This document shows, in pieces, positions 1-15,252 of a stretch of 23,973 nt of DNA. Both the position numbers and the translations under genes were made by a program. How positions within the stretch are numbered: position 1 is the stretch's first letter; every line of letters starts with the position of its first letter. The notes below the pieces were generated by a model that saw only the letters and a list, made by a program, of their open reading frames with translations, did not search any database and was not told the origin of the DNA. The stretch is from a virus, in the IMG/VR virus record IMGVR_UViG_3300028797_000632, positions 1 through 23,973 of that record; one strand, given 5' to 3'.

Positions 1-644
1 ATTTCCAACGGATATGATGCATTTCTGCTTCTTGTGGGTTTGGAAGCTGCTATTGTCTGACCAATTCCTTTAATATCCCACAAATCTGAGAACCATACGT
101 TGCGCTCTTCCCAAAAATATGCACTCTTTTGCCGCAATTCTTTTTCTCGTCCGCTAAATGTTCGTTTACCACCCTTGCGGAATATCAGAATATATTCATG
201 TTCATAGGTAACATAAGCACCAGCTGGGTACATTCCTGACCCCATGAATTTATTCGGTGAATTTGTTTGTTTGCGCCAGTGAATATCTGGTAACACGCTA
301 TATCCCATAGCAGAGAAATATTCTATTACTTTTGCGTGATTAGGATATAACTGAAAGTTACTATCAATTGTTCTTGTAGCATCACCAATGTTAATACAAA
401 CAAATCCACCAGATTTTAACACTCTATCACACTCTTCCCATACGCTATTTAATATATTATGCATATGGATAAACGCTTCGTAGCCGTTGCCAGAATACAA
501 TAATTCTTTTGTTGTTGTATCCCATATTGCATCCCACATTTCTATCATCGGATATGGTGGCGAAGTTACAATTAAGTCAACAGATTCATCGGTGATATTC
601 GACAAAAAATTACTATTGCCAATAATTACTTTATGTGTAGTCAT
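1..644 (-). CDS. DNA methyltransferase, N6-adenine/N4-cytosine family, beta class (motif IV SPPY near the N-terminus); C-terminus lies beyond the window edge
   Basis: Reverse-strand translation from the ATG at 644..642 gives MTTHKVIIGNSNFLSNITDESVDLIVTSPPYPMIEMWD...KSGGFVCINIGD... with no stop before position 1. SPPY is catalytic motif IV of amino-MTases. The start overlaps the dUTPase stop (TAATG). The ORF track omits it because it is open at the window edge. Confidence 0.75.
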   Translation of the reverse strand, partial: MTTHKVIIGNSNFLSNITDESVDLIVTSPPYPMIEMWDAIWDTTTKELLYSGNGYEAFIHMHNILNSVWEECDRVLKSGGFVCINIGDATRTIDSNFQLYPNHAKVIEYFSAMGYSVLPDIHWRKQTNSPNKFMGSGMYPAGAYVTYEHEYILIFRKGGKRTFSGREKELRQKSAYFWEERNVWFSDLWDIKGIGQTIAASKPTRSRNASYPLE

Positions 645-1090
645 TATTTTACTCCAGTAGAACCAAAACCACCGGCGCCTCGACTCGTTGTATTAAGCTT
701 CTTCACTTCATTAAACTCAACCTCAAGGTACGGAATGATAACAAGCTGTGCAATTCTTTCGTTCGGCGTAATAAATCTGGACGTATCAGAATCGTTGTGA
801 AGTGCAACTATAATTTCGCCACGATAATCTTGATCCACACATCCTACACAGTTCGCCGGTCTCAGTCCTTCCCTCGCCGCTAAACCAGATCGAGCGAATA
901 TTGCACCAAAATAGCCATCCGGAATAGCCATGGCCAATGCTGTGCCAATCTTTTTTGTTTCGCCAGGTTTAATCTCAATAAAATCTGCATCAACAATATT
1001 TGCGTACAAATCATATCCGGCAGATTCTTTGCTGCCACGAATAGGAACTTTTGCGGTGTCATCAAGTTTTCTAAAATTAATTGTTACCAT
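644..1090 (-). CDS. dut: dUTP pyrophosphatase (dUTPase)
   Basis: The protein MVTINFRKLDDTAKVPIRGSKESAGYDLYA...RSGLA...GVIDQDYRGEI...GGFGSTG carries the canonical dUTPase motifs. The real start is the internal Met of the track ORF, preceded by AAGGAGAAAAAGCACC-ATG. Confidence 0.9.
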   Translation of the reverse strand: MVTINFRKLDDTAKVPIRGSKESAGYDLYANIVDADFIEIKPGETKKIGTALAMAIPDGYFGAIFARSGLAAREGLRPANCVGCVDQDYRGEIIVALHNDSDTSRFITPNERIAQLVIIPYLEVEFNEVKKLNTTSRGAGGFGSTGVK

Positions 1091-1526
1091 GGTGCTTTTT
1101 CTCCTTATGATGAAATTTTGCATGATGTTCTCTAACATGTTTTAATATTTTTTTACGAACCAATTTTTCCATCTCGTTGTGATAATTCGTCACTACTTTC
1201 TCGTACACAAGATTGTCGTGGCGAGCATCTGGATCATAAAACGGTATGTATATATCACCGCCATTACAGGTAACAGATACTATTGTATTACTCATGTTTT
1301 CAACCCAGATTTTGAGTTCAACGTATGGTTGGCTAGTATCATCATATCTGTATAATATTTTATTATATTTGAGGTTGTTTCCTACCAGAGTGAAACCAGC
1401 TTTGGTGGCAACTCCAATAGGAACATCTGGATTAAATTCATAATTCTTCGGTTCTATCACGGATAATCTCCTTATCCTCACAAGGGACGTTCTGACCCCA
1501 CCAATATTGGCGATCTCTCGCATCAC
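1077..1526 (-). CDS. hypothetical protein, His/Lys-rich C-terminus
   Basis: 149-aa ORF with a GTG-ATG start and a 14-nt overlap with the dut start. No recognisable motifs. An overlapping 58-aa Cys-containing ORF (about 1438..1614, MPTIIAGPECNGCIYA...) in another frame makes the true start uncertain. Confidence 0.45.
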   Translation of the reverse strand: MMREIANIGGVRTSLVRIRRLSVIEPKNYEFNPDVPIGVATKAGFTLVGNNLKYNKILYRYDDTSQPYVELKIWVENMSNTIVSVTCNGGDIYIPFYDPDARHDNLVYEKVVTNYHNEMEKLVRKKILKHVREHHAKFHHKEKKHHGNN

Positions 1527-1616
1527 AGTAGACTCTAATACGCCCCTTGGTTTCTTCTTCTATAGTTGCATAAATACAACCGTTACATTCAGGGCCGGCA
1601 ATTATTGTTGGCATAA

Positions 1617-2096
1617 TTAATCATTCCATTCTTCATCTTCGGCGTTTGGAATATCATCGCTATCTTCCCAACAGCCATATTCTTCGTCGTAAGTTACAAT
1701 TACATCATCCACGGTTTCATCCACCATTGGTGTAGCATAGTATACCTCACAATCTGTCAGCATTGAGTCAAATTCTTCATAGGTTAAAATCTGGTTGGAA
1801 TAAGCATCACGTAAAGGGTACTTATACCAAGCTAACCTATATCCAGTTGGATGATAGACGAAATTTGGTTGATTATACTCTTCTTCGTCATTGCCCCAAT
1901 AGTATGGATAAAGACAAAACATTTTTGTTGTAACCCCTCCGCGAGAATTCACACGGGGGTTATCCTGGTCGTCTGCAATGCCATAATAATCACAACCGAT
2001 GTTATCTAAAAATTTACAAAATCTATCTTGCCATTGATCACGAGGGACTTCGTATGTCCCCCGCGAATGACCAAAAATAAGATTACCGAGTTCCAT
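1617..2096 (-). CDS. hypothetical protein with an acidic C-terminal tail
   Basis: 159-aa ORF with a TAA stop. The C-terminus is DEEYGCWEDSDDIPNAEDEEWND. No family recognised. Confidence 0.5.
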   Translation of the reverse strand: MELGNLIFGHSRGTYEVPRDQWQDRFCKFLDNIGCDYYGIADDQDNPRVNSRGGVTTKMFCLYPYYWGNDEEEYNQPNFVYHPTGYRLAWYKYPLRDAYSNQILTYEEFDSMLTDCEVYYATPMVDETVDDVIVTYDEEYGCWEDSDDIPNAEDEEWND

Positions 2097-2106
2097 TAAT
2101 TACTCC

Positions 2107-2433
2107 TTACTTGTCTCGTATGACATAAATATCACCAATTACATTTTCGAGTATATAACTGTTTAGAATTTCAGTCTTATTGTCTTTGTCTGTAATTTCA
2201 ATATAATATCTGTATTTATCTGGTTTGAAGTATGGGATTTTTGCAAACGCAATGAACGATGCAATAACGAAAATTATCGCAAGTATTGTACTAATAATCC
2301 TGTTTCTGGTTGATTGATCATCTAAGAATGCAGCCAAACACCAACAACCAAATATTATTGCAGCACAAATTGTAATTGCGCAAATCCAACCTTTAATACT
2401 GTTTTGAATCGGCAATGTTGCAAGTATTCTCAT
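2107..2433 (-). CDS. small integral membrane protein
   Basis: 108 aa with three hydrophobic segments (LATLPIQNSIKGWICAITICAAIIFGCWCLAAF, IISTILAIIFVIASFIAFA). Tightly coupled to the flanking genes. Confidence 0.55.
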   Translation of the reverse strand: MRILATLPIQNSIKGWICAITICAAIIFGCWCLAAFLDDQSTRNRIISTILAIIFVIASFIAFAKIPYFKPDKYRYYIEITDKDNKTEILNSYILENVIGDIYVIRDK

Positions 2434-2442
2434 AATTTTTCC

Positions 2443-4710
2443 TCAACTACAATGTGAAAAACCGCAATCTTTGCATACTGAGCACCCACCTTCAAATACT
2501 AATTCGCCACCACATTCCGGACAAATAGCTTTTGATTTCTGTTTAGGAACTTTTACCATTTCATTATTAACTGCCACTTCAACAAGTTTATCGGATGTTG
2601 GTTCATATTCACCATCGTCGTCAAACAGCTCATACTGCATTTCTTTGTACATATCAAGCAATGCATTAGCAATTGCAACTGGGCAACTATTACCCTTAGA
2701 TGTATCATGTCTGGTTGCTGCTCTTACAGCATATGACGGACAAGCTGGCACACTATGAAGCTGATCGGCAATGCTATATACATCAATTCCGCCTCTTGCA
2801 GACAATGAAATCATCCTAGATATAGCAGTCAGATTACATAGACATCCACCACTTGAACCTTTATTCAAAAAACATTCCAATAAATCGCCAGTATCTGGAT
2901 CAAAGAACGCAGAGCAATGAAGTGTACCACAACCAGTTACCAAATGTCGTTCCTTACCAATTGTATCATTGTCAACACGAATAATCATTCCACGACCAGG
3001 CTTAGTTGGAATACTCTTTTTTTCATCTGTTGAATTATTGTCGAGCGTTAGTATGCCAGTCCTTTTACAGTTATCTCGGAAAATTGTTACGCCTTTAAGT
3101 CCACATTCCCATGCGGTCATATATAATCTTTCAACTTCTTCCACAGAGAAATTATTTGGAACATTTACAGTAGAACTAATACTTGCATCTATATGCTGTT
3201 GCCAAATACCTTGCATTAATATGCGCTTCTCATAAAATATATTTTGTGCCGTAACAAAGAAATCTGGAAGATCAGAGTCATCCGTGAGACTATGCTCGTC
3301 CATGTATTTCTTTACGATTGGAGTATATACTTTATAGTATTCATCATGACCGTGTAGAGACTCTGTTTTGCGTGTATAATAGTTTGCAAAAATCGGCTCA
3401 ATTCCACCAGATATTCCAAGCATTGTTGACAGCGTACCAGTTGGAGCAATGGTTAGTAGCTGAGAATTAGCCAATCCATGAGATATATCAACATTTTCCG
3501 CATGTTTTTTGTAAAATTCAGATTTCGTAACAGCGTCATGGTGATACTTCGGATAATGACCAATTACACTGGCAAGATATGCTGACGTTTGTATTGCCTG
3601 AGATGCCATTGTGTATCCTATCATATTACAAAGATCAATTGATTCATCGTCTCCATACTTAATACCCATTTTGATTAGCATATCAGCTAACCCCATGATG
3701 CCTAACCCAATCTGTCTCCAATCACGAACCGATTCTCGCTGTTCTTGCAATGGATGAAGCGGAAGCCCTTCGTCTAACACATCATTAAGTGCAATTGTCG
3801 CAATATCTACGGTTTTTGCGAAATCATCAAAATTAAATTGTTTATCCTTAGTTACAAATTCAGCAAGATTAATTGAACCGAGAAGACAACTACCACCAGC
3901 TGGCAACGGTTCCTCCGCACACGGATTGGTTCCAGCATAATGGAACTCGTCATCGCAGCTTAACAAATTCCAATTCTCAATTCTGTCCCAAAACAGCATT
4001 CCAGGCTCCGCCCAATCCCAATTTGATTCGCAAATCTTATGGAATAATTCGTATGCATCAACTTCTTTAGTAATTGTCTCGCCAGTTTCTTGTCTGGTAA
4101 AACTTAATGTGAACGGCTCTCGATTTTTTACAGCATTCATAAATTTGTCAGTGATACGAATGCTGATATTTGCTTTCGTTACCCTATCAGTATTTTGTTT
4201 AACACCAATGAATTCTTCAAGGTCAGGATGCTCACAAGAAATTGACAACATCAATGCGCCACGACGACCGTTCTGACCTATTAAGCCAGTAACAAGCGAA
4301 TACAAATCCATGAAACTAACAGATCCAGATGTCTGTTTTGCAGTATTGTTGACCGTCGCTCCTCTTGGGGCAAGATTACTTAAATCAACACCGCAACCAC
4401 CACCATATGAATACGTTCTGGCAAGTTTCTTAGCACAATCGAATATTGATTCAATGCTATCCTCTGGCGGTTCAATAACATAACAGTTGGAGTATGTTAC
4501 TTTTACTCCTAACTTAGGCAACCCACGGTTGGCTAAAATACGACCGCCAAACAAAAACTTTTTTTCAATAATCTGACGTTTGAGTTCTTCATTTTTTGCC
4601 GAAACTCTATTTAACCATTCATCAAAGCTTTCATTGTCATAGCGGTATTTTTTATTCCAAATATCGATTCCAAGCTGATTATCTTTACCAAGCCATTCTT
4701 GTACTGTCAT
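2443..4710 (-). CDS. nrdJ: ribonucleotide reductase, class II-like (adenosylcobalamin-type, NrdJ-like) with a C-terminal Cys4 zinc ribbon
   Basis: 755 aa. It has the RNR active-site signature GTNPCAEEPLPAGGSCLLGSINL (N-x-C-x-E plus a second Cys), which resembles the class II NPCGE(Q/E)PL motif. It also has DWRQIGLGIMGLADML and a C-terminal CPECGG...CSVCKDCG redox/zinc tail. No NrdB/NrdG partner is adjacent. SD GAGGTG lies before the ATG, and the start overlaps the upstream stop (TGAATGA). Confidence 0.7.
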   Translation of the reverse strand: MTVQEWLGKDNQLGIDIWNKKYRYDNESFDEWLNRVSAKNEELKRQIIEKKFLFGGRILANRGLPKLGVKVTYSNCYVIEPPEDSIESIFDCAKKLARTYSYGGGCGVDLSNLAPRGATVNNTAKQTSGSVSFMDLYSLVTGLIGQNGRRGALMLSISCEHPDLEEFIGVKQNTDRVTKANISIRITDKFMNAVKNREPFTLSFTRQETGETITKEVDAYELFHKICESNWDWAEPGMLFWDRIENWNLLSCDDEFHYAGTNPCAEEPLPAGGSCLLGSINLAEFVTKDKQFNFDDFAKTVDIATIALNDVLDEGLPLHPLQEQRESVRDWRQIGLGIMGLADMLIKMGIKYGDDESIDLCNMIGYTMASQAIQTSAYLASVIGHYPKYHHDAVTKSEFYKKHAENVDISHGLANSQLLTIAPTGTLSTMLGISGGIEPIFANYYTRKTESLHGHDEYYKVYTPIVKKYMDEHSLTDDSDLPDFFVTAQNIFYEKRILMQGIWQQHIDASISSTVNVPNNFSVEEVERLYMTAWECGLKGVTIFRDNCKRTGILTLDNNSTDEKKSIPTKPGRGMIIRVDNDTIGKERHLVTGCGTLHCSAFFDPDTGDLLECFLNKGSSGGCLCNLTAISRMISLSARGGIDVYSIADQLHSVPACPSYAVRAATRHDTSKGNSCPVAIANALLDMYKEMQYELFDDDGEYEPTSDKLVEVAVNNEMVKVPKQKSKAICPECGGELVFEGGCSVCKDCGFSHCS

Positions 4711-4720
4711 TCATCACACC

Positions 4721-5155
4721 TCACATTTTCAAACGTCCAAATGTCCTACATAAATCGTCTTCAATCGCCTGCGCCTTATCCTCATGATGGAAACAAAAGC
4801 TCTGCGCAATAATCGCCGCTTCTTGTAAATCACGAGAAATACGATCATACAGTTTTGCAAGCTTACGATGATTCTTCAGTTCCAGTTTGGCAGCACAAAC
4901 CTCAATGCCACGCTTTTCATCCCAAGTGTCGTTCTCGTCGCAATAAGCATTGGCGTGAATAATATTTGTCTCGTTCAGAGTGTGTCTCCTAAAAACCTCA
5001 TCATGCAGAACGGCGTGTCTAAGAATTGACTTGTAAATCGGTTTAATCCCAATTCTCAAATCATTAGCGTAACTTTTTTCCAACATCTCGCCCTGGACAA
5101 GTTTTGCTTCAGGGATTACTTTAAATTCCTTACCTTTGATTTTAATTCGTTTCAT
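4721..5155 (-). CDS. hypothetical protein
   Basis: 144-aa ORF with no recognised motifs, coupled to nrdJ. Confidence 0.5.
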   Translation of the reverse strand: MKRIKIKGKEFKVIPEAKLVQGEMLEKSYANDLRIGIKPIYKSILRHAVLHDEVFRRHTLNETNIIHANAYCDENDTWDEKRGIEVCAAKLELKNHRKLAKLYDRISRDLQEAAIIAQSFCFHHEDKAQAIEDDLCRTFGRLKM

Positions 5156-5195
5156 GACATATCTCCTTAATATATGATTTAATTATTCTACTAAT

Positions 5196-5429
5196 TTATT
5201 CAACATACGCACCAAGTTCTTTAACTTGACTAATAAAATCTGCCAACTCTTCTGCATCTGATGTAACTGGCATTATCTCAACGACTCGCCCAGTCAGCCC
5301 CATTACACCCATGACCGAACATCCATCGACACATAACTTGCCGCAACTAACATTTACATCAAATCCGCAACTATCGCAAATTTTACACAAGTCATTAACT
5401 TGTTCTAAATCTAAATCTAATTTCAACAT
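5196..5429 (-). CDS. small Cys-rich protein (CKICDSCG...SCGKLCVDGC)
   Basis: 77-aa ORF with about 8 Cys in 30 residues, consistent with a metal-binding protein. It lies downstream of the RNR. Confidence 0.45.
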   Translation of the reverse strand: MLKLDLDLEQVNDLCKICDSCGFDVNVSCGKLCVDGCSVMGVMGLTGRVVEIMPVTSDAEELADFISQVKELGAYVE

Positions 5430-5431
5430 AA

Positions 5432-5644
5432 TTAATTATCCTTTACCCAACTCAGATAACTTTGCCAGTAGCCCAACATCGGCGTTGCATCAACGCACAT
5501 TTGCATACGATGTTTTGCACATTGATAATCTTCCCAAACTCCATCGTCGATTTTTAGCCAACCATCCTCAACTCCGACAATTGTCAGATGATCTTCTACT
5601 GGATCTGCATCAATAAATATATTATACTTGCTGTCAAATTCCAC
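5432..5644 (-). CDS. hypothetical protein (GTG start)
   Basis: 70 aa with an apparent GTG start. The nearest SD (AGGAG) is about 30 nt upstream with a 5-bp hairpin between, so the start is uncertain. Confidence 0.35.
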   Translation of the reverse strand: MEFDSKYNIFIDADPVEDHLTIVGVEDGWLKIDDGVWEDYQCAKHRMQMCVDATPMLGYWQSYLSWVKDN

Positions 5645-5743
5645 GCTGTCGCAATCTAACTACTTCACTGTAGTAACTCCTTTGGTTTGTTCTTGTCGCC
5701 GGATAACAAGTTAATAGTTTGTTTTATCGTCATTGTATATACC

Positions 5744-6235
5744 TCACAACACATATCGCAAGTCTACTTCGTCATTCATTACTTTGATTAAATCTTGTCG
5801 TTTACTAATTAATTTATCCTTGAGAGAATCGATTTCTTCATTAAGGCGGCGAACCACACGCTCTTTGTCTGGCATAGCATTCTTCTTTATCATATAGTGT
5901 GGCGATGTTCTGCCGCCAGAATCGAGAGATATAATCCATTTATCCTCAGATTTGTAATCGCCCCAGTGAAAGCCGCGAAATTTCTCAACGTCATTCAAGT
6001 CAAATACAAATTCAAACTTATCAATATTATCATCTGTTATTTCTATGATAAATTCATTAAAATAGGTATCACACATGTAGTATGTGTCACCGACAATTCG
6101 TACTTTGAATGTCCAATTGTTACTCCAGTATGGATTGTCACGCTTATATATTGGTAGCAATTCCAACATCGGTTCGCAGCGATAAATACCACTCATACAA
6201 AGTTTGTTGGCATTAGATTGTGATAATACTGGCAT
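5744..6235 (-). CDS. hypothetical protein
   Basis: 163-aa ORF with a TGA stop. Confidence 0.5.
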   Translation of the reverse strand: MPVLSQSNANKLCMSGIYRCEPMLELLPIYKRDNPYWSNNWTFKVRIVGDTYYMCDTYFNEFIIEITDDNIDKFEFVFDLNDVEKFRGFHWGDYKSEDKWIISLDSGGRTSPHYMIKKNAMPDKERVVRRLNEEIDSLKDKLISKRQDLIKVMNDEVDLRYVL

Positions 6236-6258
6236 TATTTCTCCTTATGTTTATTATT

Positions 6259-6447
6259 TTAAACAATAGATTGGTTATTGTTTATAATAGTTGACATTAT
6301 ACATTGTTGAGCAACTTTGTATGCGGCAATTAACTCTGTATCGGTTTGAACTAAATCACAGGCGGCGCAATTGTGATCACATATGTTGTTGCGTTCTACA
6401 CATCGTTGCTCAATTTGCATTAACTCCAGTGCTCGTTCTAATGTCAT
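6259..6447 (-). CDS. small Cys-rich hypothetical protein
   Basis: 62 aa with CVERNNICDHNCAACD. It overlaps the next gene by 4 nt (ATGA). Confidence 0.4.
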   Translation of the reverse strand: MTLERALELMQIEQRCVERNNICDHNCAACDLVQTDTELIAAYKVAQQCIMSTIINNNQSIV

Positions 6448-6725
6448 AGACCGAGTTCCCTCTTTGCTTCGTCTGTAAGCTGATATTTAACATTCTCACC
6501 TTCCCAATCCCATCCTTGAATGCGAGCTTCGGCAACTGCAGCGACGTTGAGAACCATACTCCCTTTATTAATAGAACAATCATCATTCATTACAGTGGCA
6601 ATAACTTCGAGTTTAATGGTGTTCTCTGGAATGTAAATGATTGCTGGGACTGTGGTTACTTCGAGATATTCTGGTTCTGGCGGATTTTGTGTTGAAACTG
6701 TGGGTGGTTCATTGTTAATTTTCAT
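6444..6725 (-). CDS. hypothetical protein
   Basis: 93 aa with the SD AAGGAGAACTAATT-ATG. It lies immediately 3' of the tRNA on the same strand. Confidence 0.5.
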   Translation of the reverse strand: MKINNEPPTVSTQNPPEPEYLEVTTVPAIIYIPENTIKLEVIATVMNDDCSINKGSMVLNVAAVAEARIQGWDWEGENVKYQLTDEAKRELGL

Positions 6726-6760
6726 AATTAGTTCTCCTTAATATGATATTTATTATTACA

Positions 6761-6851
6761 CAAGGGCGGAGCGATTCGAACGCTCATCAGCGGCATCAAA
6801 CGCGCTTACAGATTTAGAGTCTGCTGTTTTCGACCATTAAACTACGCCCCT
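6761..6851 (-). tRNA. tRNA with anticodon CUA (amber/UAG-reading); anticodon arm identical to the E. coli tRNA-Tyr su3/supF suppressor; long variable arm (type II); no encoded CCA
   Basis: Reverse complement is AGGGGCG-TA-GTTTAATGGTCGAAAAC-A-GCAGA[CTCTAAA]TCTGT-(22 nt variable)-GAGCG[TTCGAAT]CGCTC-CGCCCTT-G.
- Acceptor stem: 7 bp, with G2·U71.
- U8 and A9 are present.
- D stem: 4 bp.
- T stem: 5 bp, with a canonical TTCGAAT loop.
- Anticodon loop: CU-CUA-AA with U33 and A37.
- The GCAGA-CUCUAAA-UCUG(U) arm matches the tRNA-Tyr(GUA) arm with G34 changed to C. Confidence 0.75.
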
Positions 6852-6929
6852 AAATTAATCACGCCTTTCTCATTCTTCCGCAAAAGCGAGCTTTCATCTC
6901 CCAGTCCGCAAACCTCGACGAGCATTGAC

Positions 6930-6974
6930 CTACCCGCCGTCACCACGGCAGCAGATCATATATTTGTGCCACAT
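6930..6974 (-). CDS. 14-codon leader-like ORF (MWHKYMICCRGDGG) ending in TAG, directly upstream of the suppressor tRNA
   Basis: Very strong SD (CTATAAGGAGGTTAAA-ATG). The ORF terminates at a TAG at 6930-6932. Read-through would add VNARRGLRTGR and then TGA. Too short to assess by composition. Confidence 0.25.
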   Translation of the reverse strand: MWHKYMICCRGDGG

Positions 6975-7012
6975 TTTAACCTCCTTATAGTGGGTTATAT
7001 TGTTGCTATGTT

Positions 7013-7300
7013 TTATTCAACCCATTCCGACTCATACCAAACCATCAGAAACTGATCACCAGAAAACTCGTCGGTAAAAATATCATACCCATCCATTTCA
7101 TCATCAAGATAATAGCTATCTCCATCATCACTGATTAATTCACCAGTTGGATAATCATAATGACAAATGCCGACTAAAACATCACGATCATATGGCGTAT
7201 GAGTTCTGTAATTTATTTCAAGCCTTTTTCGTTCTGGGTTGCTTACCTTTTTTATAATCTCTCTAAGCTTCATCTTCGTCTTCGTCCCAACTATCAACAC
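7013..7300 (-). CDS. hypothetical protein
   Basis: 95-aa track ORF. The likely true start is the internal ATG (MKLREIIKK..., about 7275). A 38-aa ORF (7264..7380, MLATTSEKKIKQ..., TAG stop) overlaps its start in ATGAAGCTTAG fashion. Confidence 0.45.
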   Translation of the reverse strand: MLIVGTKTKMKLREIIKKVSNPERKRLEINYRTHTPYDRDVLVGICHYDYPTGELISDDGDSYYLDDEMDGYDIFTDEFSGDQFLMVWYESEWVE

Positions 7301-7407
7301 TTAATATTTCTACATCAACAGCACCAGTCATATCTTTGAGAGTTTGCTTAATTTTTTTCTCGCTAGTAGTAGCAAGCATATCGCCAACTCGACCTTCCCA
7401 AGTTAAA

Positions 7408-7989
7408 TCAGTTCTTACCGTCGTTATTGCCATCGAATTCTACCAACCTTCTCCAACCAAAACACCATGTCCACGCACGGAGTCCGTTATATCCTGCATC
7501 TACCATATCTTCGAATAACCGCTTGCGACTTGCATCAAACATTGGAATATGTAGTCCGTCGTATGTTGCTCTCTCGCCAGCGTACTTTACTCGCTTTACC
7601 AACTCAGTTTCATAATTTTCTTCACCATTATTCCATACGCAAATTTTTTTGATTGCTTCTTTATCGTCAAACGGCTCGTGATTTCTTTTACAACGTCTAT
7701 AATATTTTTTTAATTGATTTAATCGCCATTTGAGCCGATCTTCTTCTTCAATGTCGATGTATGAACGCTCCGATAGATGAGCGTCAATGCCGTCTTCTTT
7801 GGACGATGACATACTAGTTATCAAATAAGGATAATACGGCATCAAATCCTTTTGCGAGTCAATACGCAACGGAATTAAACCATTGTTCGCAGCGTATATA
7901 CGAACATTACTAAAATCAGTGACCTTGTGAATCATTACGAGCGTATCGTAACAATCGCACTTGCCAGTCAGATAACTAATGTTAATCAC
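7408..7989 (-). CDS. hypothetical protein
   Basis: 193-aa ORF with a TGA stop and no recognised motifs. Confidence 0.5.
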   Translation of the reverse strand: MINISYLTGKCDCYDTLVMIHKVTDFSNVRIYAANNGLIPLRIDSQKDLMPYYPYLITSMSSSKEDGIDAHLSERSYIDIEEEDRLKWRLNQLKKYYRRCKRNHEPFDDKEAIKKICVWNNGEENYETELVKRVKYAGERATYDGLHIPMFDASRKRLFEDMVDAGYNGLRAWTWCFGWRRLVEFDGNNDGKN

Positions 7990-8009
7990 CTCATCTCTTT
8001 AATAATTGA

Positions 8010-8438
8010 TTATCTGCAATAATAATCAATGACGTAATCAATCGCTTGCAACATAGACGGAAATACCACTTGACTATCAACCTTCAACCATGGATATACT
8101 TCCTCATCTGTCGAAAATGAAACCACCGGAATTTTATTATCTACTGCAAACTGTAGTTCTTGTGCTGTTCCTGGACTTGTTCTAGTTCTATCCAAATTAC
8201 AAAGCACCAATCGCGAATGTAGTATTTGATCCATATAGTATTGCTTGACTTGTGTATCAGATTGATGCTTGACTTCTGAATAGCTAAAGAAATCAAGTGG
8301 ATTGATAATTTTTACGGTACAATCTAAATCCTCTGTCACAGTCTTAAACATCTGCGTTGCTTTTGCTCTCCAACTAGCCCCTTCATCTTCTTCGAAGTAA
8401 GATGGCCCAGCAAGATAAATTCTAATTACTTCACTCAT
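8010..8438 (-). CDS. nucleoside 2-deoxyribosyltransferase-like / dNMP N-glycosidase-like protein (Rossmann-like YLAGP family)
   Basis: The N-terminus MSEVIRIYLAGPSYFEEDEGASWR matches the YLAGPxF signature of the nucleoside 2-deoxyribosyltransferase / Rcl-like fold (PF05014-type). Size is about 140 aa. Confidence 0.5.
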   Translation of the reverse strand: MSEVIRIYLAGPSYFEEDEGASWRAKATQMFKTVTEDLDCTVKIINPLDFFSYSEVKHQSDTQVKQYYMDQILHSRLVLCNLDRTRTSPGTAQELQFAVDNKIPVVSFSTDEEVYPWLKVDSQVVFPSMLQAIDYVIDYYCR

Positions 8439-8757
8439 TACTATTCTCCAATTCTATTACAGTCATCAAACAATAATTCGCCATGTCAATTAACGTGTCA
8501 GTAATCGCTTCGTCGCCGCTATCAACTTCAGGATGCTTTGATAAATTAACAAAACGATTATACTTATCACTGATACGAACAGCGCAAGCAGCAAGACCCC
8601 AATCGCTAAAACTGCGTCCAAAAGAATCACCATAAGCCGCATTCTTCTGGATATATGTTGAATGTATTTGCTCACATAATTCTTCATGTCGTTTGATTTT
8701 GTCCATCGTTGTTTCTCCTGTCGTAAAAATATTTATTGTAAGCATCGTAGCGTTCAT
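8431..8757 (-). CDS. small all-alpha hypothetical protein, possibly DUF1599/MazG-like nucleotide-metabolism associated
   Basis: 108 aa. KNAAYGDSFG...DEAITDTLIDMANYCL is reminiscent of small phage nucleotide-modification-associated helical domains. Recalled from memory only, not verified. Confidence 0.3.
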   Translation of the reverse strand: MNATMLTINIFTTGETTMDKIKRHEELCEQIHSTYIQKNAAYGDSFGRSFSDWGLAACAVRISDKYNRFVNLSKHPEVDSGDEAITDTLIDMANYCLMTVIELENSNE

Positions 8758-9121
8758 GGATATCCATTAAGTTATAACCATGATGCGTTGCCCACTGCTG
8801 AAATTGTTTCCAATATCCGCATGTGGAGAATTCTGGACATCCACAACGATATACGCAATTCGGTACCATCACATTCGACAGTTCTTTCTGGTCGCAATCA
8901 TCACGGATTGCAACCTTAAGTTCTTCCATATGGTGGCGAGTTTCCGGCGACGCCTGATAACATAATCTCCATCTAGCAACATTAATCAACGCTTGTGCAT
9001 TAGCATTGACATCCATGCTAACAAGTGTATCTTGCGGAGATTCATCACGATTTACGCCGGTTCTATCACTACGTTGTGTTGATATCCACTTATCCCAACC
9101 AAGCCAGTGTCGTGCAAACAT
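8684..9121 (-). CDS. hypothetical Cys-containing protein
   Basis: 145 aa with CVYRCGCPEFSTCGYW. It overlaps the previous ORF in another frame. Confidence 0.4.
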   Translation of the reverse strand: MFARHWLGWDKWISTQRSDRTGVNRDESPQDTLVSMDVNANAQALINVARWRLCYQASPETRHHMEELKVAIRDDCDQKELSNVMVPNCVYRCGCPEFSTCGYWKQFQQWATHHGYNLMDIHERYDAYNKYFYDRRNNDGQNQTT

Positions 9122-9271
9122 TTATACCGCTCATTACTGAGTACTTTAACTCTGTTTTCAACAGACGGATTAGACTATCTCATCATCCACACATAAGTGT
9201 TAGGATGCGGTGCGCTTCCAGCGGTACGTCTCCGCTGTACTTCCTTTCGGAATAGTCGTTACAAAAAGAAA

Positions 9272-10195
9272 TTATTCTGTTTTATATGTTTCATTGTTAA
9301 CAATGTGATATATCGTTTTAATACTCGAACGTGATTTAAACTTTTCATAGATTTGAGGTACTTTCATCCCGTCTTTATACATCTGCCTAATAGTGTCAAC
9401 CTCATCTTGTGAAAATTTGGCATTATTATTTCTACATCCATTTTGACGTCCTTTTGGTTTTGTGTGCTTTTTTCTATTATTTGGAAGATCGCTCTGTATG
9501 TGCTTAAATGTATTATTGTTCCAAACATCCATAAATGTATTGAAGTTTTCTATCCCTGAAATTTCAAATACTTCAGCGCACGATAACCGCCCTTTGTTGT
9601 ATTCATCTCTTATCAATATTACTTGTTCATCTGTAACAACTTTAATTGATTCATGAGATTGAACTTTATCATAATTGTTTCTATGAAAATTTTTATTTTC
9701 GTCTGTATAAACGTCTAAATGGATATTTTTCCATGTTTTGCCATGCCAGATATCATTGAATGTATTTATGCTAATTTTGTCAGCGTATTTTTTATAAACA
9801 TTCTGTTTGTCATCATGTTTATTATACGACTCCCTAATATCCCAAATCTCTTCAGATGTCATTTTTGAATTTGGATTATCTTCATTTAATAAATAAGAAT
9901 TAAGATTCCCGCCGGTTGATATATTGTACCCAGCATCACGATTTGTAGAATTATATTTCTAAATATAATATATTTCACGTTCATTTAATTTTTCTTTATC
10001 ACATTCTTCAAGGATATCAAAAGAAAATGCATCAACACCGTATTTATACATCGCTTTATACAAATAAGAATCTTTTCTTTCCGACTCTTGTTTATATTTA
10101 CGCTTATGTTCTCCCCATCTTCTTTTTATATCAATTGATTGTCCAATATATACTTTATTGTTAACAAGATTTCTTATAATATATATTCCAGCCAT
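9272..10195 (-). CDS. GIY-YIG homing endonuclease (I-TevI/Seg-like: GIY-YIG domain plus NUMOD/IENR-type DNA-binding repeats) interrupted by one in-frame TAG (9959-9961)
   Basis: N-terminal part (track ORF 9959..10195): MAGIYIIRNLVNNKVYIGQS...RRWGEHK...EREIYYI, then TAG, then in-frame KYNSTNRDAGYNISTGGN... running into track ORF 9272..9862.
- The interrupted stretch aligns with I-TevI ERENFWIKELNSKINGYNI, so the TAG sits inside the conserved domain.
- No frameshift.
- SD GAAGGAAAATT-ATG.
- The downstream half carries two HTH-like repeats (...LSCAEVFEISGIE..., ...DEVDTIRQMYKDGMKVPQIYEKF). Confidence 0.8.
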
Positions 10196-10321
10196 AATTT
10201 TCCTTCTCGGTATTGCCCTAAGTATAGGGGTTTCACCGATAGCATATTTTTAATACACCCCAATTTGTAAGATTGGTTCACACCGTTTTCATTTACACAT
10301 TACTGTGTAAAGGCACTTCAA

Positions 10322-10522
10322 TTAATGCGTCGCGACCCAGCTTTTAATGTTTGGCCATTTCCACCGAATTGTAATTAATCTAATCGGCGAATGTTCAGAG
10401 ATTAACAAATTATGTATAAACTGTTTGGACGGAACATTGTCTGTCGGATCTTTATTAACTGTATTTCTGCACTCATTTTTCGCCGCCGTCCAATCGGCAT
10501 TAACATTGAGAATTTTAATCAT
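10322..10522 (-). CDS. hypothetical protein
   Basis: 66-aa ORF whose start overlaps the stop of the ThyA-like gene. Confidence 0.35.
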   Translation of the reverse strand: MIKILNVNADWTAAKNECRNTVNKDPTDNVPSKQFIHNLLISEHSPIRLITIRWKWPNIKSWVATH

Positions 10523-11300
10523 TGTTCTTCAGCGTCTCAACTTTCTCCATAATCATTGGTATTGCTTCGTCCATGATGTCTTTCCAATCACCGTCATACT
10601 CATAAGTAATATCTTCTTTGTCTTCAGCAGTATCAATGCGCCACGCATATCCATGAAGAAGTTCCCAATCTTTTTCGTAGCAATGAAAACTATTCGCTCG
10701 ATGTGTGTAAGTGCCAACTTTAACACCAAGTTCATCGGCGATTCGTTTCTGCAACATAATCAATGCAAACGCATTCATAAATGTTGCTTTGGCGGCATCA
10801 TTTGACCTAAATAACACATCGCAATCAAGTTCACCATTGCGAATGAAATATTGGATATGCTGTAAACAAGCTGGATCATCAGAACCAATATCATCAATAC
10901 TACGAATAAACATAACCGCCCTTCTACTCGACGGATTGCGACGAAGTTCATTTATCACAAAACTAATCTGATTAATTAGATAACCTTCACGCCCAGGATA
11001 TTCCGTCATACGCTGATGGTATGTGTATGTCCAGTTGCCACGATCAACTTCGAAATCCAGAATACCATCCAACATTTCCATGACGTATTGCTGAAGTTCT
11101 TCTGGCCCGCCAATAAAGCATTTTGATATCATCGGTTCTCGTAGCGGATATTGGATTACCATTGTCGCAGATAATTCTTTCTGTCGTGTGTTCCAGTCGG
11201 CACAGTCAGTAACGTCGCCGCAATAATATAATGTCGTTAGCGCTTTGTGATATGCTTGAGGCAGTGTATCTTCACAAAATAAATATTCTTTCATTGGCAA
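10515..11300 (-). CDS. ThyA-family enzyme: thymidylate synthase or dUMP hydroxymethylase (dUMP-specific Asn retained)
   Basis: Aligns to ThyA as follows:
- NPSSRRAVMFIRS with DPDSRRIIVSAWN.
- PACLQHIQYFI with APCHAFFQFYV (catalytic Cys).
- GELDCDVLFRSNDAAKATFMNAFAL with [27 protein letters not shown].
Asp and Asn are conserved, and the Asn implies dUMP rather than dCMP as substrate. The N-terminus is divergent. SD AAGGAAAATTG-ATG. Confidence 0.75.
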   Translation of the reverse strand: MPMKEYLFCEDTLPQAYHKALTTLYYCGDVTDCADWNTRQKELSATMVIQYPLREPMISKCFIGGPEELQQYVMEMLDGILDFEVDRGNWTYTYHQRMTEYPGREGYLINQISFVINELRRNPSSRRAVMFIRSIDDIGSDDPACLQHIQYFIRNGELDCDVLFRSNDAAKATFMNAFALIMLQKRIADELGVKVGTYTHRANSFHCYEKDWELLHGYAWRIDTAEDKEDITYEYDGDWKDIMDEAIPMIMEKVETLKNND

Positions 11301-11319
11301 TTTTCCTTTAATAAATTAT

Positions 11320-11451: not shown

Positions 11452-11470
11452 AACCAACTCCTCGGTTCGT

Positions 11471-11499: not shown

Positions 11500-11514
11500 T
11501 GTGTTGCTTAATAT

Positions 11515-13428
11515 TTAATTAATAAGTTTGAGAAAATCAGCTTCAGAAATTATCTCGACACCAAGTTCCTTCGCTCGTTTATTCTTGCCACTGGTTGATG
11601 CGACATCGTTATTAATCAAATAATCAGTGTTTTTGCTAACTGAACTCGCCACATGACCGCCATTATCCTCAATTGCTTTGACCAGTTCATTACGGTTGCT
11701 ATAATTCTGAAGTTTACCAGTAATAACAAATGATTTCCCAGAAAGCGCTCCATTATTGGTCGGCTTATTCATAATATTATCACTCTGGAAACTCAGAATA
11801 CTACGCAAGAAATTGAATTCTGAGCGGTTTTTCTTCATCCAAGTGTAAATGTTTTTATTCAATATTGGCCCAATACCAGGGATTGACGAGAAATCAAATC
11901 CGCTGTCGATTGCATTTACAAACTCGTTAATGTTGTGGAAACGAGCAAAGATTAATTTGGTTTGTCCAGCGCCGATGTTCGGTATGCTCAGTGCCGTAAT
12001 AAATTTACGAGGATCAACATCATGTGTGCTTGCTTCGATTGATTTCAGCAATTTATCAACAGATTTTTTGCCAAACCCAGACAAGTGCAACATTCCGGAC
12101 TGATATGCATTGAGCAAATAAATATCGCCGAGACTATGAAGCCAACCCATGCTAATAAATGTCTGAAGCGTTGCTTCGGATAATCCATCAATATCCATGC
12201 CCTTTTTGCTGACAAAATGTGTGAGCTTGCCCAACAGTTTACCCTCGCAATCCTCATTCACACACATCAGCACTTCGGTGTTGTTATCTTTGACAATTTT
12301 TGTCGGTTCTCCGCAAATTGGACAAACAGAAGGAACTGCAATTGCACCATTACCATCCTGATCAACGTGATCAATCTGGGGAATGATTTGATTCGCTTTG
12401 TATATGTAGCAAGTGCAACCATTAGTTAATCCAAGTTCATTCATAATACTCAAATTATGAAGACTTGCTCTTTCAACTTCGCTACCATCAATCATTACTG
12501 ATGGAGAGAATACTGCTACCGGTGTAATTTGCCCAGTTTTACCAACTTGCCAGATAACTTCCTTAAGCTTTGTTGCATAAGTTTCATCTTGATATTTATA
12601 TGCTACTGCTCCAAGCGGATGATGTTCTGTCATTCCTAACGATTTTCCGTATTGGATATCATCATACTTGATTACAACACCATCAATTGGAAAACCTTCT
12701 TTGTTGGCATTGTTCTTGATTAATGTCAAGATTCTCGTGATCTCTTCCATTGTTTCAGCGCCATTCAACATATACTTATAAACAGTTTCAAATCCAAGGA
12801 AATTGGCTTCAATAAGATTAGCACATAAACTATTGTTACTACCACCCTCAATTACATCCCAACCATAGAACTTCAAATGTCGTTTCGCAGATTCAGCGCC
12901 GTCCAACAAATTAAGAGATCCGGCTGCAAGATTGCGAGGGTTCTTATACTCACCATTGGTGTTGATGCTATCAAAATCGCCTTGCAGTATTACGCATTCA
13001 CCATCAATAACATATTTGCCAATGCGATTGATAACCTTCGGTAGATTACTGATGGAATTTGCGTGATGCATAATATCATTGCCAACATTACCATCGCCTC
13101 TAGTTTCGAGACGCACAAGAATACCATCCTGATAAGTAGCGGAAATTGTCAATCCATCAGCTTTATACATTGCCAAGCACTGTCTGTCTTTAATGAACTT
13201 CTTGACTTCAAATTCGGAATGAATTTTGTCAAGCGACAGCATTGGATGCTGATGTGTGATCTTAGCAATACTGTCAACTGGTGATGCACCAACGGTTTCG
13301 ACGTATCCAAGATGTTTGGCTTGCTCAACAAGCCGGTCATATTCTTCGTCTGTAAGTTGCGACGTGCCATAGTTGTAGTAATCCTCTTTGGCTTTTTGAA
13401 TTTTGCCAACTAAATCATCGTATTTCAT
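11515..13428 (-). CDS. ligA: NAD+-dependent DNA ligase (LigA)
   Basis: It has the adenylation motif YKADG (KxDG) and the Zn finger CPICGEPTKIV...CVNEDC. HhH regions and a C-terminal BRCT domain (KSFVITGKL...GGHVASSVSKNTDYLI) are present. Length is about 640 aa. The start is assigned to MKYDDLVG, preceded by GTGGAGAATAAAT-ATG. Confidence 0.9.
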   Translation of the reverse strand: MKYDDLVGKIQKAKEDYYNYGTSQLTDEEYDRLVEQAKHLGYVETVGASPVDSIAKITHQHPMLSLDKIHSEFEVKKFIKDRQCLAMYKADGLTISATYQDGILVRLETRGDGNVGNDIMHHANSISNLPKVINRIGKYVIDGECVILQGDFDSINTNGEYKNPRNLAAGSLNLLDGAESAKRHLKFYGWDVIEGGSNNSLCANLIEANFLGFETVYKYMLNGAETMEEITRILTLIKNNANKEGFPIDGVVIKYDDIQYGKSLGMTEHHPLGAVAYKYQDETYATKLKEVIWQVGKTGQITPVAVFSPSVMIDGSEVERASLHNLSIMNELGLTNGCTCYIYKANQIIPQIDHVDQDGNGAIAVPSVCPICGEPTKIVKDNNTEVLMCVNEDCEGKLLGKLTHFVSKKGMDIDGLSEATLQTFISMGWLHSLGDIYLLNAYQSGMLHLSGFGKKSVDKLLKSIEASTHDVDPRKFITALSIPNIGAGQTKLIFARFHNINEFVNAIDSGFDFSSIPGIGPILNKNIYTWMKKNRSEFNFLRSILSFQSDNIMNKPTNNGALSGKSFVITGKLQNYSNRNELVKAIEDNGGHVASSVSKNTDYLINNDVASTSGKNKRAKELGVEIISEADFLKLIN

Positions 13429-13637: not shown

Positions 13638-14921
13638 TTATTTAGCACTATTTCTTCTTAGATAATCATGTTCAATAGACACCTTGGGATTTCTCCGATA
13701 ATTATAGATTTTCTCAATCTGAAGAAGAGCGTCTCTAATCGACTTAATCTTTGTCATTTTCCCATAATTTTTGCGCAGTCTTTTCAGCAGAAATTCGTTA
13801 TCAATTTCTGGATGATTAAAACAAAATGCAAGAGCAATCTTGAAGTAATCTCCGCGACCGCCAACTTCACTTACGATGTTTTTGAACTTCAATTCATATG
13901 TAAGAACAGAGGTTGCTCTCTTAACATCATCGGCAGAACATTTAAGTTTACCACTTCTAATAATTTCGGCATCGGCAGCTGTGATTGATCCAGAGCCAGT
14001 AACTGCGTGATAAACATTGGTAAACCCGACGTCCTCAAATCTGCGATACAACTCCATGAAATTGCGATAGTCGTTTGAAGTTTTTGCCAAACGTGCAATA
14101 TGGTTCATGTTTGAATCTGCAAACTGAATAGTGTTAGTTTTGGAAGCAAAACCACTCTTGTCAACAGTGGTCACATTGGTATTTTTCTTGGATTTATTAC
14201 TGTTTATTCTTTCCTTGTATATCTTGGACTTGGCATTTATTTCACTTACAGCTTGATTAAAATCTCCAAAACCGTGAACACACATATAGTAATTGCTCCA
14301 CTTATCTTTATCCACAAGCATATATCCTTCTTTGTGCATCCACGGAACAACATCTTCATTTTCATTCATATATCTATGAGTAAAATGATCATTTCCTTTG
14401 CTAAACACTTTTGATTTATCATTGCTATATAAATCGTCCGTTATCGTCATAAAGTGACCGATGACTTTGTCTTCTACGGTTTCGATATACGAAAGAATAA
14501 CTTGCGGTCTTTTATGCTCCGCACTTCTATCCTTTACTTTAACACCATATATCATTTCATCACTCATCATCTCTTCTAAGTAGTTCATTTTTTCGATCTC
14601 CTCTTCTGTGTATTTAAACCCTTCCGATCTTGGCGCACCGCCATAAACCTAATTGTAATATTTTCTATTACGAACAACGTCAAGTTTTTGAGTTATCTTT
14701 TGTTCTTGCTTATATAGTTCTGCTTCAGTTTTACACACTTTAAGTATTTTTTTCTTAAAATTCTATCTGCCATATAACTTAAGCGCTTTCAAAAATGCCG
14801 TTCCACTGCCTAAGTAGTCATCTTCTTCTATTGCGCAATGGCAAGTTCTTCTACCAACATATTCCATATTGTTAATAAGATTTGTAGTACAATAAATGTA
14901 ACGATTAGTTATTTCTTTCAT
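13638..14921 (-). CDS. second GIY-YIG homing endonuclease, interrupted by two in-frame TAG codons (14763-14765 and 14649-14651)
   Basis: From the ATG at 14921 (SD AAGGAGTAATA-ATG) the minus-strand reading is MKEITNRYIYCTTNLINNMEYVGRRT...ALKLYGR-TAG-NFKKKILKVCKTEAELYKQEQKITQKLDVVRNRKYYN-TAG-VYGGAPRSEG...
- This runs in frame (111 codons) into the 316-aa track ORF 13638..14588.
- It carries GIY...YVG motifs and an RNRKYYN-TAG segment homologous to EREIYYI-TAG in the first endonuclease and to ERENFWIK in I-TevI.
- The pieces were missed by the ORF track because they are shorter than 60 aa. Confidence 0.7.
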
Positions 14922-14938
14922 TATTACTCCTTAATATA

Positions 14939-15130
14939 TTATTTATTTGAGATTCCCCACAATAAATCATCAAACAAATAATATGTCTTATGTCGATTTC
15001 TCAACCAAAACCACCACAATTCAAGCTTCTGCCACCAATACAACTTTATCCCATAATACTTCTTCACAAACTCAACGATCTCGTCAGTAGTCCAATGATG
15101 TTTCTCAATAGCCATAGGCACCTCCAACAA
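14939..15130 (-). CDS. hypothetical Trp-rich small protein
   Basis: 63 aa with SD GGAGGTGCCT-ATG. A near-consensus promoter lies directly upstream. Confidence 0.45.
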   Translation of the reverse strand: MLEVPMAIEKHHWTTDEIVEFVKKYYGIKLYWWQKLELWWFWLRNRHKTYYLFDDLLWGISNK

Positions 15131-15140
15131 TTACCCCACT

Positions 15141-15169
15141 ATAATACACTATCAAGTCGATTTTGTCAA
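15141..15169 (-). promoter_or_regulatory. near-consensus sigma70 promoter: TTGACA, 17 nt, TATTAT
   Basis: On the minus strand the -35 TTGACA is at 15164-15169, followed by a 17-nt spacer and -10 TATTAT at 15141-15146. The SD+ATG of ORF 14939..15130 lie about 25 nt further on. Confidence 0.6.
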
Positions 15170-15189
15170 TAGTTTTGTTTAATATATGA

Positions 15190-15226
15190 TTAATGTTTTT
15201 TTCGGGCGAACAATTAAGTCCGCCCA
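15190..15226. other. GC hairpin (GGGCGG-11 nt-CGCCCG) flanked by T7 and A-rich runs, in the gap between the MVP-like gene and the downstream promoter
   Basis: Plus strand: tttttttcGGGCGaacaattaagtCCGCCCatatataaaa. No proper U-tract follows in the minus-strand sense, so this is a possible but weak terminator or processing site. Confidence 0.25.
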
Positions 15227-15252
15227 TATATAAAATACTCCCACAAGTTACA

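Follow-up and report, generated by a model that had tools for sequence, protein, structure and literature searches.

A homing endonuclease gene (HEG#1) interrupted by a single in-frame TAG was examined in a 23,973-nucleotide stretch of viral DNA (IMG/VR record IMGVR_UViG_3300028797_000632, positions 1 to 23,973; hereafter the window). The gene lies on the minus strand and has the following parts.

9272..10195, minus strand: HEG#1, I-TevI-like GIY-YIG homing endonuclease gene of 307 codons, with ATG at 10195, TAA at 9272-9274 and TAG as codon 79
9959..9961, minus strand: in-frame TAG, codon 79 of HEG#1, in the context TAG-A; also TAG in the orthologue found on contigs L006-L009
9917..10195, minus strand: GIY-YIG catalytic domain of HEG#1, residues 1-93, delimited by Pfam PF01541, an alignment with PDB 1MK0 and the invariant columns of alignment A1

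Read from the ATG at 10195, the frame comprises 308 codons including the stop, and the TAG at 9959-9961 is its sole interruption. An initial annotation of the window had described two open reading frames (ORFs), 9959..10195 and 9272..9862 (196 amino acids), lying in one frame and parted by a single TAG, and reading of the minus-strand frame bore this out. The bridge between them (9863..9958) is free of stops as had been stated, but counts 32 codons rather than 33, a trivial difference.

The N-terminal 78 residues matched the Pfam GIY-YIG family PF01541 with E = 5e-13, and the joined protein, which the initial annotation had proposed to compare with this profile, matched with E = 2e-12. Residues 2-93 matched the catalytic domain of I-TevI (PDB 1MK0/1LN0) with E = 2e-9, in agreement with the TAG-spanning alignment to I-TevI that had been claimed, with the Asn of the GYN motif placed after the TAG. 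The TAG aligns with K80 of I-TevI and sits between the catalytic glutamate (E74) and the conserved GYN asparagine (N91). The residues Y5 of GIY, Y16 of YIG, R26, H30, E74 and N91 are all present in HEG#1, with N91 downstream of the TAG; among the 30 sequences of alignment A1, Y16, R26, H30, E74 and N91 are invariant and Y5 is conserved in at least 90%. The bridge itself carries the invariant GYN and a GG motif. A weak Pfam HTH_7 match was found at the C-terminus, and the zinc-finger linker of I-TevI was not detected in HEG#1. A megablast search of the phage collection with positions 8000-12000 found nothing, and relatives were reached through protein searches, which returned approximately 28 homologues that are single uninterrupted proteins of 300-320 amino acids covering 99% of the query. 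By its sequence HEG#1 is predicted to be an I-TevI-like GIY-YIG homing endonuclease, with the nuclease domain and a C-terminal DNA-binding region in one polypeptide.

HEG#1 was found to lie within a group I intron of a thyX-like gene, a location absent from the earlier reading of the window. The intron and its surroundings comprise the following.

9119..10324, minus strand: probable group IA (T4 td-like) intron of 1206 nt, with HEG#1 in the loop upstream of P7
10325..10522, minus strand: exon 1 of the thyX-like gene, 66 codons, placed by alignment of the spliced protein
8684..9118, minus strand: exon 2 of the thyX-like gene, starting TTT GCA CGA CAC (FARH), placed by alignment of the spliced protein
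10199..10205, minus strand: Shine-Dalgarno sequence AAGGAAA of HEG#1, complementary to UUUCUUU at 9265-9271 directly after the stop
9252..9257, minus strand: 5' strand of P7, GACUAU, pairing with AUAGUC at 9173-9178, both as in the T4 td intron

HEG#1 is flanked by ORFs of 66 codons (10322..10522) and 145 codons (8684..9121). Joining CAT (10325) to TTT (9118) gives a ThyX-like protein of 210 amino acids, which matches phage genomes in one piece with 46% identity over residues 3-204. The splice junction (...KSWVATH/FARHW...) aligned without gaps to the intron-less ThyX-like proteins of MT835551 and PQ006092, one of which is annotated as ThyX. These were used in place of a 213-residue gene of the relative L010, which had been considered as an intron-less thyX allele and was rejected when the alignment showed it to be unrelated. 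The 5' splice site follows the U of CAU and the 3' site follows the G of AAAUG. The exon end ...GCAU pairs with the internal guide AGUGC, with a U.G pair in P1.

The non-coding parts of the intron (129 nt on the 5' side and 153 nt on the 3' side) are 93-97% identical to the orthologous locus, where the ORF is 80% identical. The helices of the 5' part are P1 (GCAUU/AGUGC), P2, two extra hairpins, P4 (UCGGU/ACCGA) and P5 (CCCUA/UAGGG). All six are fully paired in each of three variants (34 of 34 proposed pairs), with four compensatory pairs; compensatory changes were also obtained in 3 of 500 control shuffles. The unconstrained minimum free energy fold recovered the same helices (z = -2.6). Within the catalytic core the P7 strands UAACGACUAU and AUAGUCU are those of the T4 td intron and P4 and P5 covary, while P3 and the two extra hairpins were placed by complementarity alone. 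The Rfam Intron_gpI model gave no match either at the gathering threshold or at E values up to 10, probably owing to the 924-nt ORF, so that the assignment of the core rests on the comparison with T4 td. Viral contigs scanned with an exact pattern of the intron core gave no match either. The complementary AAGGAAA and UUUCUUU could form a P6 stem closing the ORF loop, which would hide the ribosome-binding site of HEG#1 in the manner known for I-TevI (PMC3073962).

Probable translation of the TAG codon

The closest database homologue of HEG#1 is P0001, a protein of 307 amino acids with 76% identity that is listed as uninterrupted. It is encoded by four contigs from four different samples (L006-L009), none of which yields P0001 under the standard code; the database entry is a translation in which TAG is read as Gln. 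The gene for P0001 has TAG at codons 79, 151, 191 and 234, contains neither TAA nor TGA, shows no indel relative to HEG#1 and is 80% identical to it at the nucleotide level. The TAG at codon 79 is present in both genes, and the window has CAT, CAA and CAG at codons 151, 191 and 234. The initial annotation had asked whether relatives carry a sense codon, possibly Tyr, at codon 79: the close orthologue keeps TAG, the more distant contig L017 has the sense codon GAT, and Tyr was not seen.

The ratio of nonsynonymous to synonymous substitution rates (dN/dS) between HEG#1 and this orthologue was 0.13 up to codon 78, 0.37 over the 32-codon bridge and 0.14 from codon 112 to codon 307, giving approximately 0.13-0.16 on either side of the TAG at a synonymous divergence (dS) of about 0.9. 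These low ratios at such a dS indicate that every segment of HEG#1, bridge included, has remained coding throughout a long divergence.

A search for frames that end at TAA or TGA only revealed a second TAG-bearing endonuclease gene (HEG#2).

13638..14921, minus strand: HEG#2, free-standing SegE-like GIY-YIG endonuclease gene of 427 codons (SegE_GIY-YIG, E = 1e-5)
14763-14765 (codon 53) and 14649-14651 (codon 91), minus strand: in-frame TAGs of HEG#2, conserved in relatives

HEG#2 is preceded by a strong Shine-Dalgarno sequence, AAGGAG, and its orthologues in L011 (86% identical) and L010 (68% identical) keep the frame. Codon 53 is TAG in HEG#2 and both orthologues; codon 91 is TAG in two of the three genes and ATG in that of L010, which has a further TAG at codon 56 where the other two have AAG. 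The dN/dS ratio is approximately 0.1 in every segment of HEG#2, so that both endonuclease genes, the bridge of HEG#1 excepted, have values of 0.1-0.16 on either side of their TAGs. Seven distinct internal stops occur in HEG#1, HEG#2 and their orthologues, and every one is TAG, against an expectation of 29% if they had arisen as random single-base nonsense changes in these AT-rich genes (p ~2e-4).

Several readings in which the TAG is not translated were considered. A recent nonsense mutation in a gene whose frame has not yet decayed would need a single transition from CAG to TAG, and phage introns often contain degenerate homing endonuclease genes, that of T4 I-TevIII being annotated as defective. 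Such a pseudogene is extremely improbable here, given that the TAG is common to an orthologue with 80% nucleotide identity, that this orthologue has accumulated four TAGs and no TAA, TGA or frameshift, that dN/dS downstream of the TAG is near 0.15, that the internal stops are exclusively TAG, and that a suppressor tRNA is present in the window.

A layout of two genes, in which a 78-residue N-terminal fragment is followed by an independent DNA-binding protein of 196 residues starting at the ATG at 9862, corresponds exactly to the output of standard-code gene callers, which render HEG#1 as pieces of 78 and 196 residues and HEG#2 as pieces of 52 and 316 residues. In HEG#2 the internal ATG at 14588 (minus strand) has GAGGAG 9 nt upstream (14589..14612 region), and its 316-residue DNA-binding part could therefore also arise alone, without suppression. 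For HEG#1 this layout is very improbable: the ATG at 9862 has no Shine-Dalgarno sequence upstream, the bridge is open and constrained and includes the GYN and GG motifs, and the homologues are single proteins, none of those examined starting at the internal ATG. An independent C-terminal gene with its own conserved start, which the initial annotation had named as the finding that would overturn its proposal, was thus not found.

A sequencing or assembly error at 9959-9961 has a negligible probability, since the DNA was recovered with 100% identity in one assembly from ENA and in those made by Logan from two different runs, and the same TAG occurs in the diverged orthologue from four further samples. 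The earlier proposals that HEG#1 is one gene rather than a pseudogene, and that its TAG must be read through, are therefore upheld by the orthologue that keeps the TAG, the constraint on both sides of it, the single-protein homologues and the lack of an internal Shine-Dalgarno sequence. Taken together, these comparisons make it very likely that HEG#1 is an intact endonuclease gene encoded within an intron and that its TAG is translated as a sense codon.

The probable inserted residue and the suppressor tRNA

The counterparts of TAG in close orthologues were compiled at 11 sites, giving Gln at six, Glu at two and His, Lys and Met at one each, and never Trp, Tyr, Ser or Leu. The sites include six TAGs of L010, for which the window has Gln and Gln in a nucleoside deoxyribosyltransferase (89% amino acid identity) and Gln, Glu, Gln and Glu in a 193-residue protein (78%). 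Summed by hand over the aligned residues, the BLOSUM62 scores were 35 for Gln, 23 for Glu, 10 for Lys, -2 for Ser, -14 for Tyr and -25 for Leu. In three distant family members (L022, L026 and L033) TAG replaces the near-invariant Q19 of the YIGQS motif. Gln is the residue best supported by these three lines, and the TAG is probably read as Gln (genetic code 15). The Tyr suggested in the initial annotation was not supported, as it occurs at none of the 11 sites, has a negative BLOSUM62 sum and is not expected from the Trp-like tRNA described below.

A tRNA that would read UAG had been noted in the window, and was recovered with ARAGORN and Rfam.

6761..6851, minus strand: amber-suppressor tRNA, anticodon CUA, with a Trp-like body (A1-U72, G73); Rfam tRNA score 58.9 bits

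This tRNA(CUA) lies 2.4 kb from HEG#1 on the same strand. It was compared with E. coli trpT, taken by genome coordinates. Outside a 17-nt insertion in the variable region (approximately 20 nt in the Rfam alignment), which gives a long variable arm, 55 of 73 bases are identical, compared to 41-45 for four control tRNAs. The A1-U72 pair, the G73 discriminator and the D and T arms are common to tRNA(CUA) and E. coli tRNA-Trp, and the anticodon loops (CUCUAAA and CUCCAAA, respectively) differ at position 35 alone. The short (5-nt) class I variable loop expected of an su+7-type tRNA is absent.

With blastn, tRNA(CUA) had no match in either the phage collection or the E. coli genomes. Homologues were found in three otherwise unrelated viral contigs (L014 2133-2223, L015 761-851 and L016 5818-5905). 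Across the four contigs compensatory changes occur in the acceptor stem (GG/CC to CC/GG) and the T stem, and the variable arm is kept; the gene thus covaries as a tRNA. Two of the three homologue contigs contain TAG-rich ORFs, including a TerL gene with several in-frame TAGs (phrog_2, E = 2e-19); the TerL of L016 gave no Pfam match and was recognised by PHROGs. HNH endonuclease genes with in-frame TAGs were also observed approximately 1 kb or less from the tRNA in L014 (reverse complement, 12294..13265; five TAGs) and L016 (reverse complement, 4150..5085; three TAGs), about one in each after the start Met.

The label of tRNA-Pyl given by ARAGORN stems from the anticodon alone and was rejected, since the tRNA folds as a standard cloverleaf, in which the anticodon stem has 5 bp, the D-loop is normal and the variable arm is long, and its sequence is Trp-like. 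No pyl genes were found among the 10 window ORFs scanned against Pfam. A Ser, Leu or Tyr identity, considered because of the long variable arm, was also rejected on the aligned residues and the Trp-like tRNA sequence.

Decoding of the TAG as Glu, Trp, Tyr, Ser, Leu or pyrrolysine is unlikely. The combination of a type-II-like long variable arm with a Trp-like body would be compatible with it, as would Glu at two of the 11 aligned sites and the distant contig L028, where TAG is nearly always opposite a conserved Glu. The orthologues with 78-89% amino acid identity, the BLOSUM62 sums, the replacement of Q19 and the dissimilarity to tRNA-Pyl argue against it, as does the behaviour of E. coli tRNA-Trp(CUA), which gains Gln identity and loses Trp identity. 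PMC2965240, citing Yaniv 1974, gives tRNA-Trp(CUA) as charged by glutaminyl-tRNA synthetase (GlnRS), and by analogy we infer that the phage tRNA(CUA) would be charged with Gln by the host GlnRS.

The L028 contig (IMGVR_UViG_3300020112_000379) is of separate interest. Its member of the endonuclease family (1893-2606) has 12 in-frame TAGs and no GAG codons, and the TAGs are almost exclusively opposite conserved Glu residues, the catalytic Glu included. The topoisomerase-like genes flanking it contain GAG and no TAG. This pattern suggests that TAG may be read as Glu in that phage, a reassignment without a report for phages in the literature consulted.

Distribution of in-frame TAG codons and other genes of the window

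The use of TAG was examined in approximately 49 tiled minus-strand ORFs of the window and a 3.4-kb extension (~27 kb in total, containing no late structural or lysis genes). Their terminators are TAA in 29 cases, TGA in 17 and TAG in three, and two of the three TAGs are internal TAGs of the endonuclease genes. Only one of about 47 non-endonuclease ORFs therefore ends in TAG, where approximately 15% would be usual at such a GC content by our own estimate.

22077..22598, minus strand: DUF551 gene, the sole non-endonuclease ORF ending in TAG in the 27 kb (TAG at 22077..22079, followed by T)

The DUF551 TAG is in frame with a small zinc-ribbon-like ORF (21876..22058, minus strand) that begins six codons on and has its own strong Shine-Dalgarno sequence; if the TAG were suppressed, a fusion protein with this ORF would result.

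In-frame TAG occurs at three of 734 endonuclease codons and at none of 7276 other codons, 202 of which are Gln codons (Fisher p = 6e-4). It is likewise confined to endonuclease genes in the orthologous loci L006 and L011. The same comparison was made in seven further viral contigs (L017, L022, L026, L027, L028, L031 and L033), with the endonuclease match at ~3000 in each. Their homologous endonuclease genes contain 2-12 TAGs each, 32 in 1743 codons, and the large genes flanking them contain none in 8086 codons. A bias of recoding towards endonuclease genes is thus seen repeatedly.

The syntenic relative L010, a 41-kb contig with 77-91% nucleotide identity (compared at positions 14564..15592, 15955..16135 and 18157..20715), has TAGs in core genes whose counterparts in the window contain none, two in the nucleoside deoxyribosyltransferase and four in the 193-residue protein. 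Readthrough as a device of HEG#1 alone, as first suggested, is not compatible with these core genes or with the TAGs in TerL of phages that have the tRNA family. A purine follows the sense TAG at 11 of 13 distinct sites of the lineage, and a purine after UAG favours amber suppression in E. coli. Taken at face value, these patterns point to a lineage-wide reassignment of TAG from stop to sense, most likely to Gln under code 15. As a separate observation, a LAGLIDADG ORF with no counterpart in the window interrupts the ribonucleotide reductase (RNR) gene of L010.

The clustering in endonuclease genes may have a neutral origin, in which a decoded TAG is reached by drift from CAG or CAA in AT-rich, weakly expressed, mobile genes. 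With a suppressor tRNA in place such changes would carry almost no cost, and selfish genes passed between TAG-recoded phages would be where they build up first. This is possible, though somewhat less than an even prospect. The endonuclease genes have a GC content of 27-30%, compared to approximately 38% for the window, and the positions of TAG turn over between orthologues, as at codons 151, 191 and 234 of HEG#1 and codons 56 and 91 of HEG#2. The TAGs in ordinary core genes of L010 and the position of the tRNA(CUA) gene among early-type genes are also as drift would predict. Three observations do not fit drift: codon 79 of HEG#1 and codon 53 of HEG#2 are conserved as TAG across a dS of approximately 0.9-1.2, the bias towards endonucleases is repeated in seven unrelated contigs, and the same bias occurs with TGA in Agate phages.

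Other points weigh against a recoded phage in which TAG controls its endonucleases. The DUF551 gene still terminates in TAG, and genome-wide recoding in this particular phage would be a projection from its relatives. The tRNA(CUA) gene is absent at the syntenic site of L010, the relative richest in TAG (half of that contig having been read), so that the link between tRNA and codon is not one-to-one in the DNA seen. In the window its neighbours on the same strand are early-type genes, and a simple late switch is the less plausible for it. We know of no Gln-accepting tRNA with a long variable arm, and the charging of tRNA(CUA) is uncertain for this reason. The enrichment itself could reflect weakly selected mobile genes drifting from CAG to TAG first.

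Several other genes were observed in and next to the window. A protein of 811 amino acids (15253..17688, minus strand) contains the shoulder domain of major vault proteins (PF11978, E = 5e-16); in the phage collection it matched only huge uncultured phages of 462-735 kb, with 33-35% identity, and no prophage was found in the bacterial genomes scanned with it. A cluster of nucleotide-metabolism and modification genes (644..11300, minus strand, and L001 13621..15095) includes ThyA-like, ThyX-like and DUF1599 (nucleotide modification associated) genes, the nucleoside 2-deoxyribosyltransferase, a class II-type RNR with a TSCPD domain, a dUTPase/DCD gene and an N6/N4 methyltransferase, and the phage may therefore contain a modified DNA base. 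A tyrosine integrase gene of 411 amino acids in the standard code (L001 15905..17140) lies 1.2 kb beyond the start of the window, so that the phage may be temperate.

Comparison with known systems and proposed role

Recoding of TAG to Gln with phage suppressor tRNAs is well established for Lak, crAss-like and other clades, among them Garnet/Amethyst and phAss-1, and proteomics has confirmed it (Borges et al., 10.1101/2021.08.26.457843; Peters et al., PMC9523058; PMC10607447). The suppressor of phAss-1 was assigned to Gln by its authors using tRNAscan-SE (PMC10607447). The recoding proposed here is of this already described kind: in-frame TAGs occur in conserved genes with Gln in homologues, the phage has a tRNA(CUA), TAG is rare as a terminator, and genes for replication and nucleotide metabolism keep the standard code. 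In tblastn, Lak phages gave the best of the matches that cover most of HEG#1. The window differs from these phages in that, within the ~27 kb read, TAG is found only in two homing endonuclease genes, and in that the suppressor is Trp-like with an inserted long variable arm.

The su+7 suppressor of E. coli provides the nearest comparison for the tRNA. Both have a Trp-type acceptor with A1-U72 and G73, Trp-type D and T arms and the single C35-to-U change in the anticodon loop, whereas the phage tRNA has the 17-nt insertion and long variable arm that is conserved in four contigs. PMC2965240 describes su+7-type tRNAs as aminoacylated by GlnRS.

The T4 td intron is a group IA intron, as that of the window appears to be, and in both the GIY-YIG ORF is looped out ahead of P7. 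The two introns begin with the same UAAUUGA and have the P7 strands given above, and their non-coding parts are of similar length (129 and 153 nt here, compared to approximately 132 and 146 nt). In both cases the host gene serves dTMP synthesis, although it is thyX-like here and thyA in T4, and the catalytic domain of HEG#1 matches I-TevI as described. A further difference is the in-frame UAG, which may add to or replace the I-TevI type of control. I-TevI is restrained by late promoters in T4. It is also restrained by a hairpin that sequesters its ribosome-binding site, and splicing of the td intron is impaired by premature translation of I-TevI (PMC3073962).

The closest precedent for the pattern of recoding is found in the TGA-recoded Agate phages, where recoding preferentially affects the endonuclease of a group I intron that lies in an early gene (Borges et al., 10.1101/2021.08.26.457843). 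These authors proposed that in-frame stops block production of the endonuclease until late infection (10.1101/2021.08.26.457843). As in those phages, the intron endonuclease of the window is in a presumably self-splicing intron of an early gene and is preferentially loaded with the recoded stop. The recoded codon is TGA (Trp) there and TAG (probably Gln) here, the host gene and the clade differ, and here the free-standing Seg-like HEG#2 has the same pattern. The window is the TAG counterpart of the Agate case in a different lineage, and what is new is the td-like intron in a thyX-like gene, the second, free-standing endonuclease and the Trp-like suppressor with a variable arm.

A mechanism can be outlined on this basis. 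If only host release factor 1 (RF1) acted at the UAG, a fragment of 78 residues would be released that lacks N91 and the DNA-binding half and should be inactive. Once the phage tRNA(CUA) were charged, presumably with Gln by the host GlnRS, it would compete with RF1 and the full enzyme of 307 amino acids would be made. Confinement of TAG to two selfish endonuclease genes could then limit or delay nuclease output until the suppressor tRNA accumulates, and the UAG in HEG#1 would also keep ribosomes off the intron during folding and splicing. We regard such a role in timing or attenuation as evenly balanced between true and false. Attenuation of a nuclease toxic to DNA had been suggested in the initial annotation; what bears on it is the confinement of TAG to the two endonuclease genes of the window and the return of this pattern in other phages.

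A stronger form, in which the amber codon is used only by the selfish endonuclease genes and tRNA(CUA) is a dedicated translational gate for DNA-cutting mobile elements, is rather doubtful. If it were true, the tRNA-Trp body with a long variable arm would be a suppressor class undescribed before, and the endonuclease genes would either have adopted recoding before other genes or be what selects for retention of the suppressor. The TAG-loaded endonucleases that lie between TAG-free early genes in at least seven other contigs, one of which (L028) appears to read TAG as Glu, would then reflect a general rule.

For annotation, standard-code calling splits or loses genes in these contigs, and translation table 15 is to be preferred. 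The Trp-like tRNA with its added variable arm suggests how such phages may obtain Gln insertion from the host GlnRS. The locus is also a compact example that could be rebuilt in E. coli, consisting of a td-like intron, an enzyme whose family is well understood and a single suppressor tRNA. For the biology of these phages it would provide a TAG instance of the published idea that recoded stops silence homing endonucleases until a suppressor tRNA is available.

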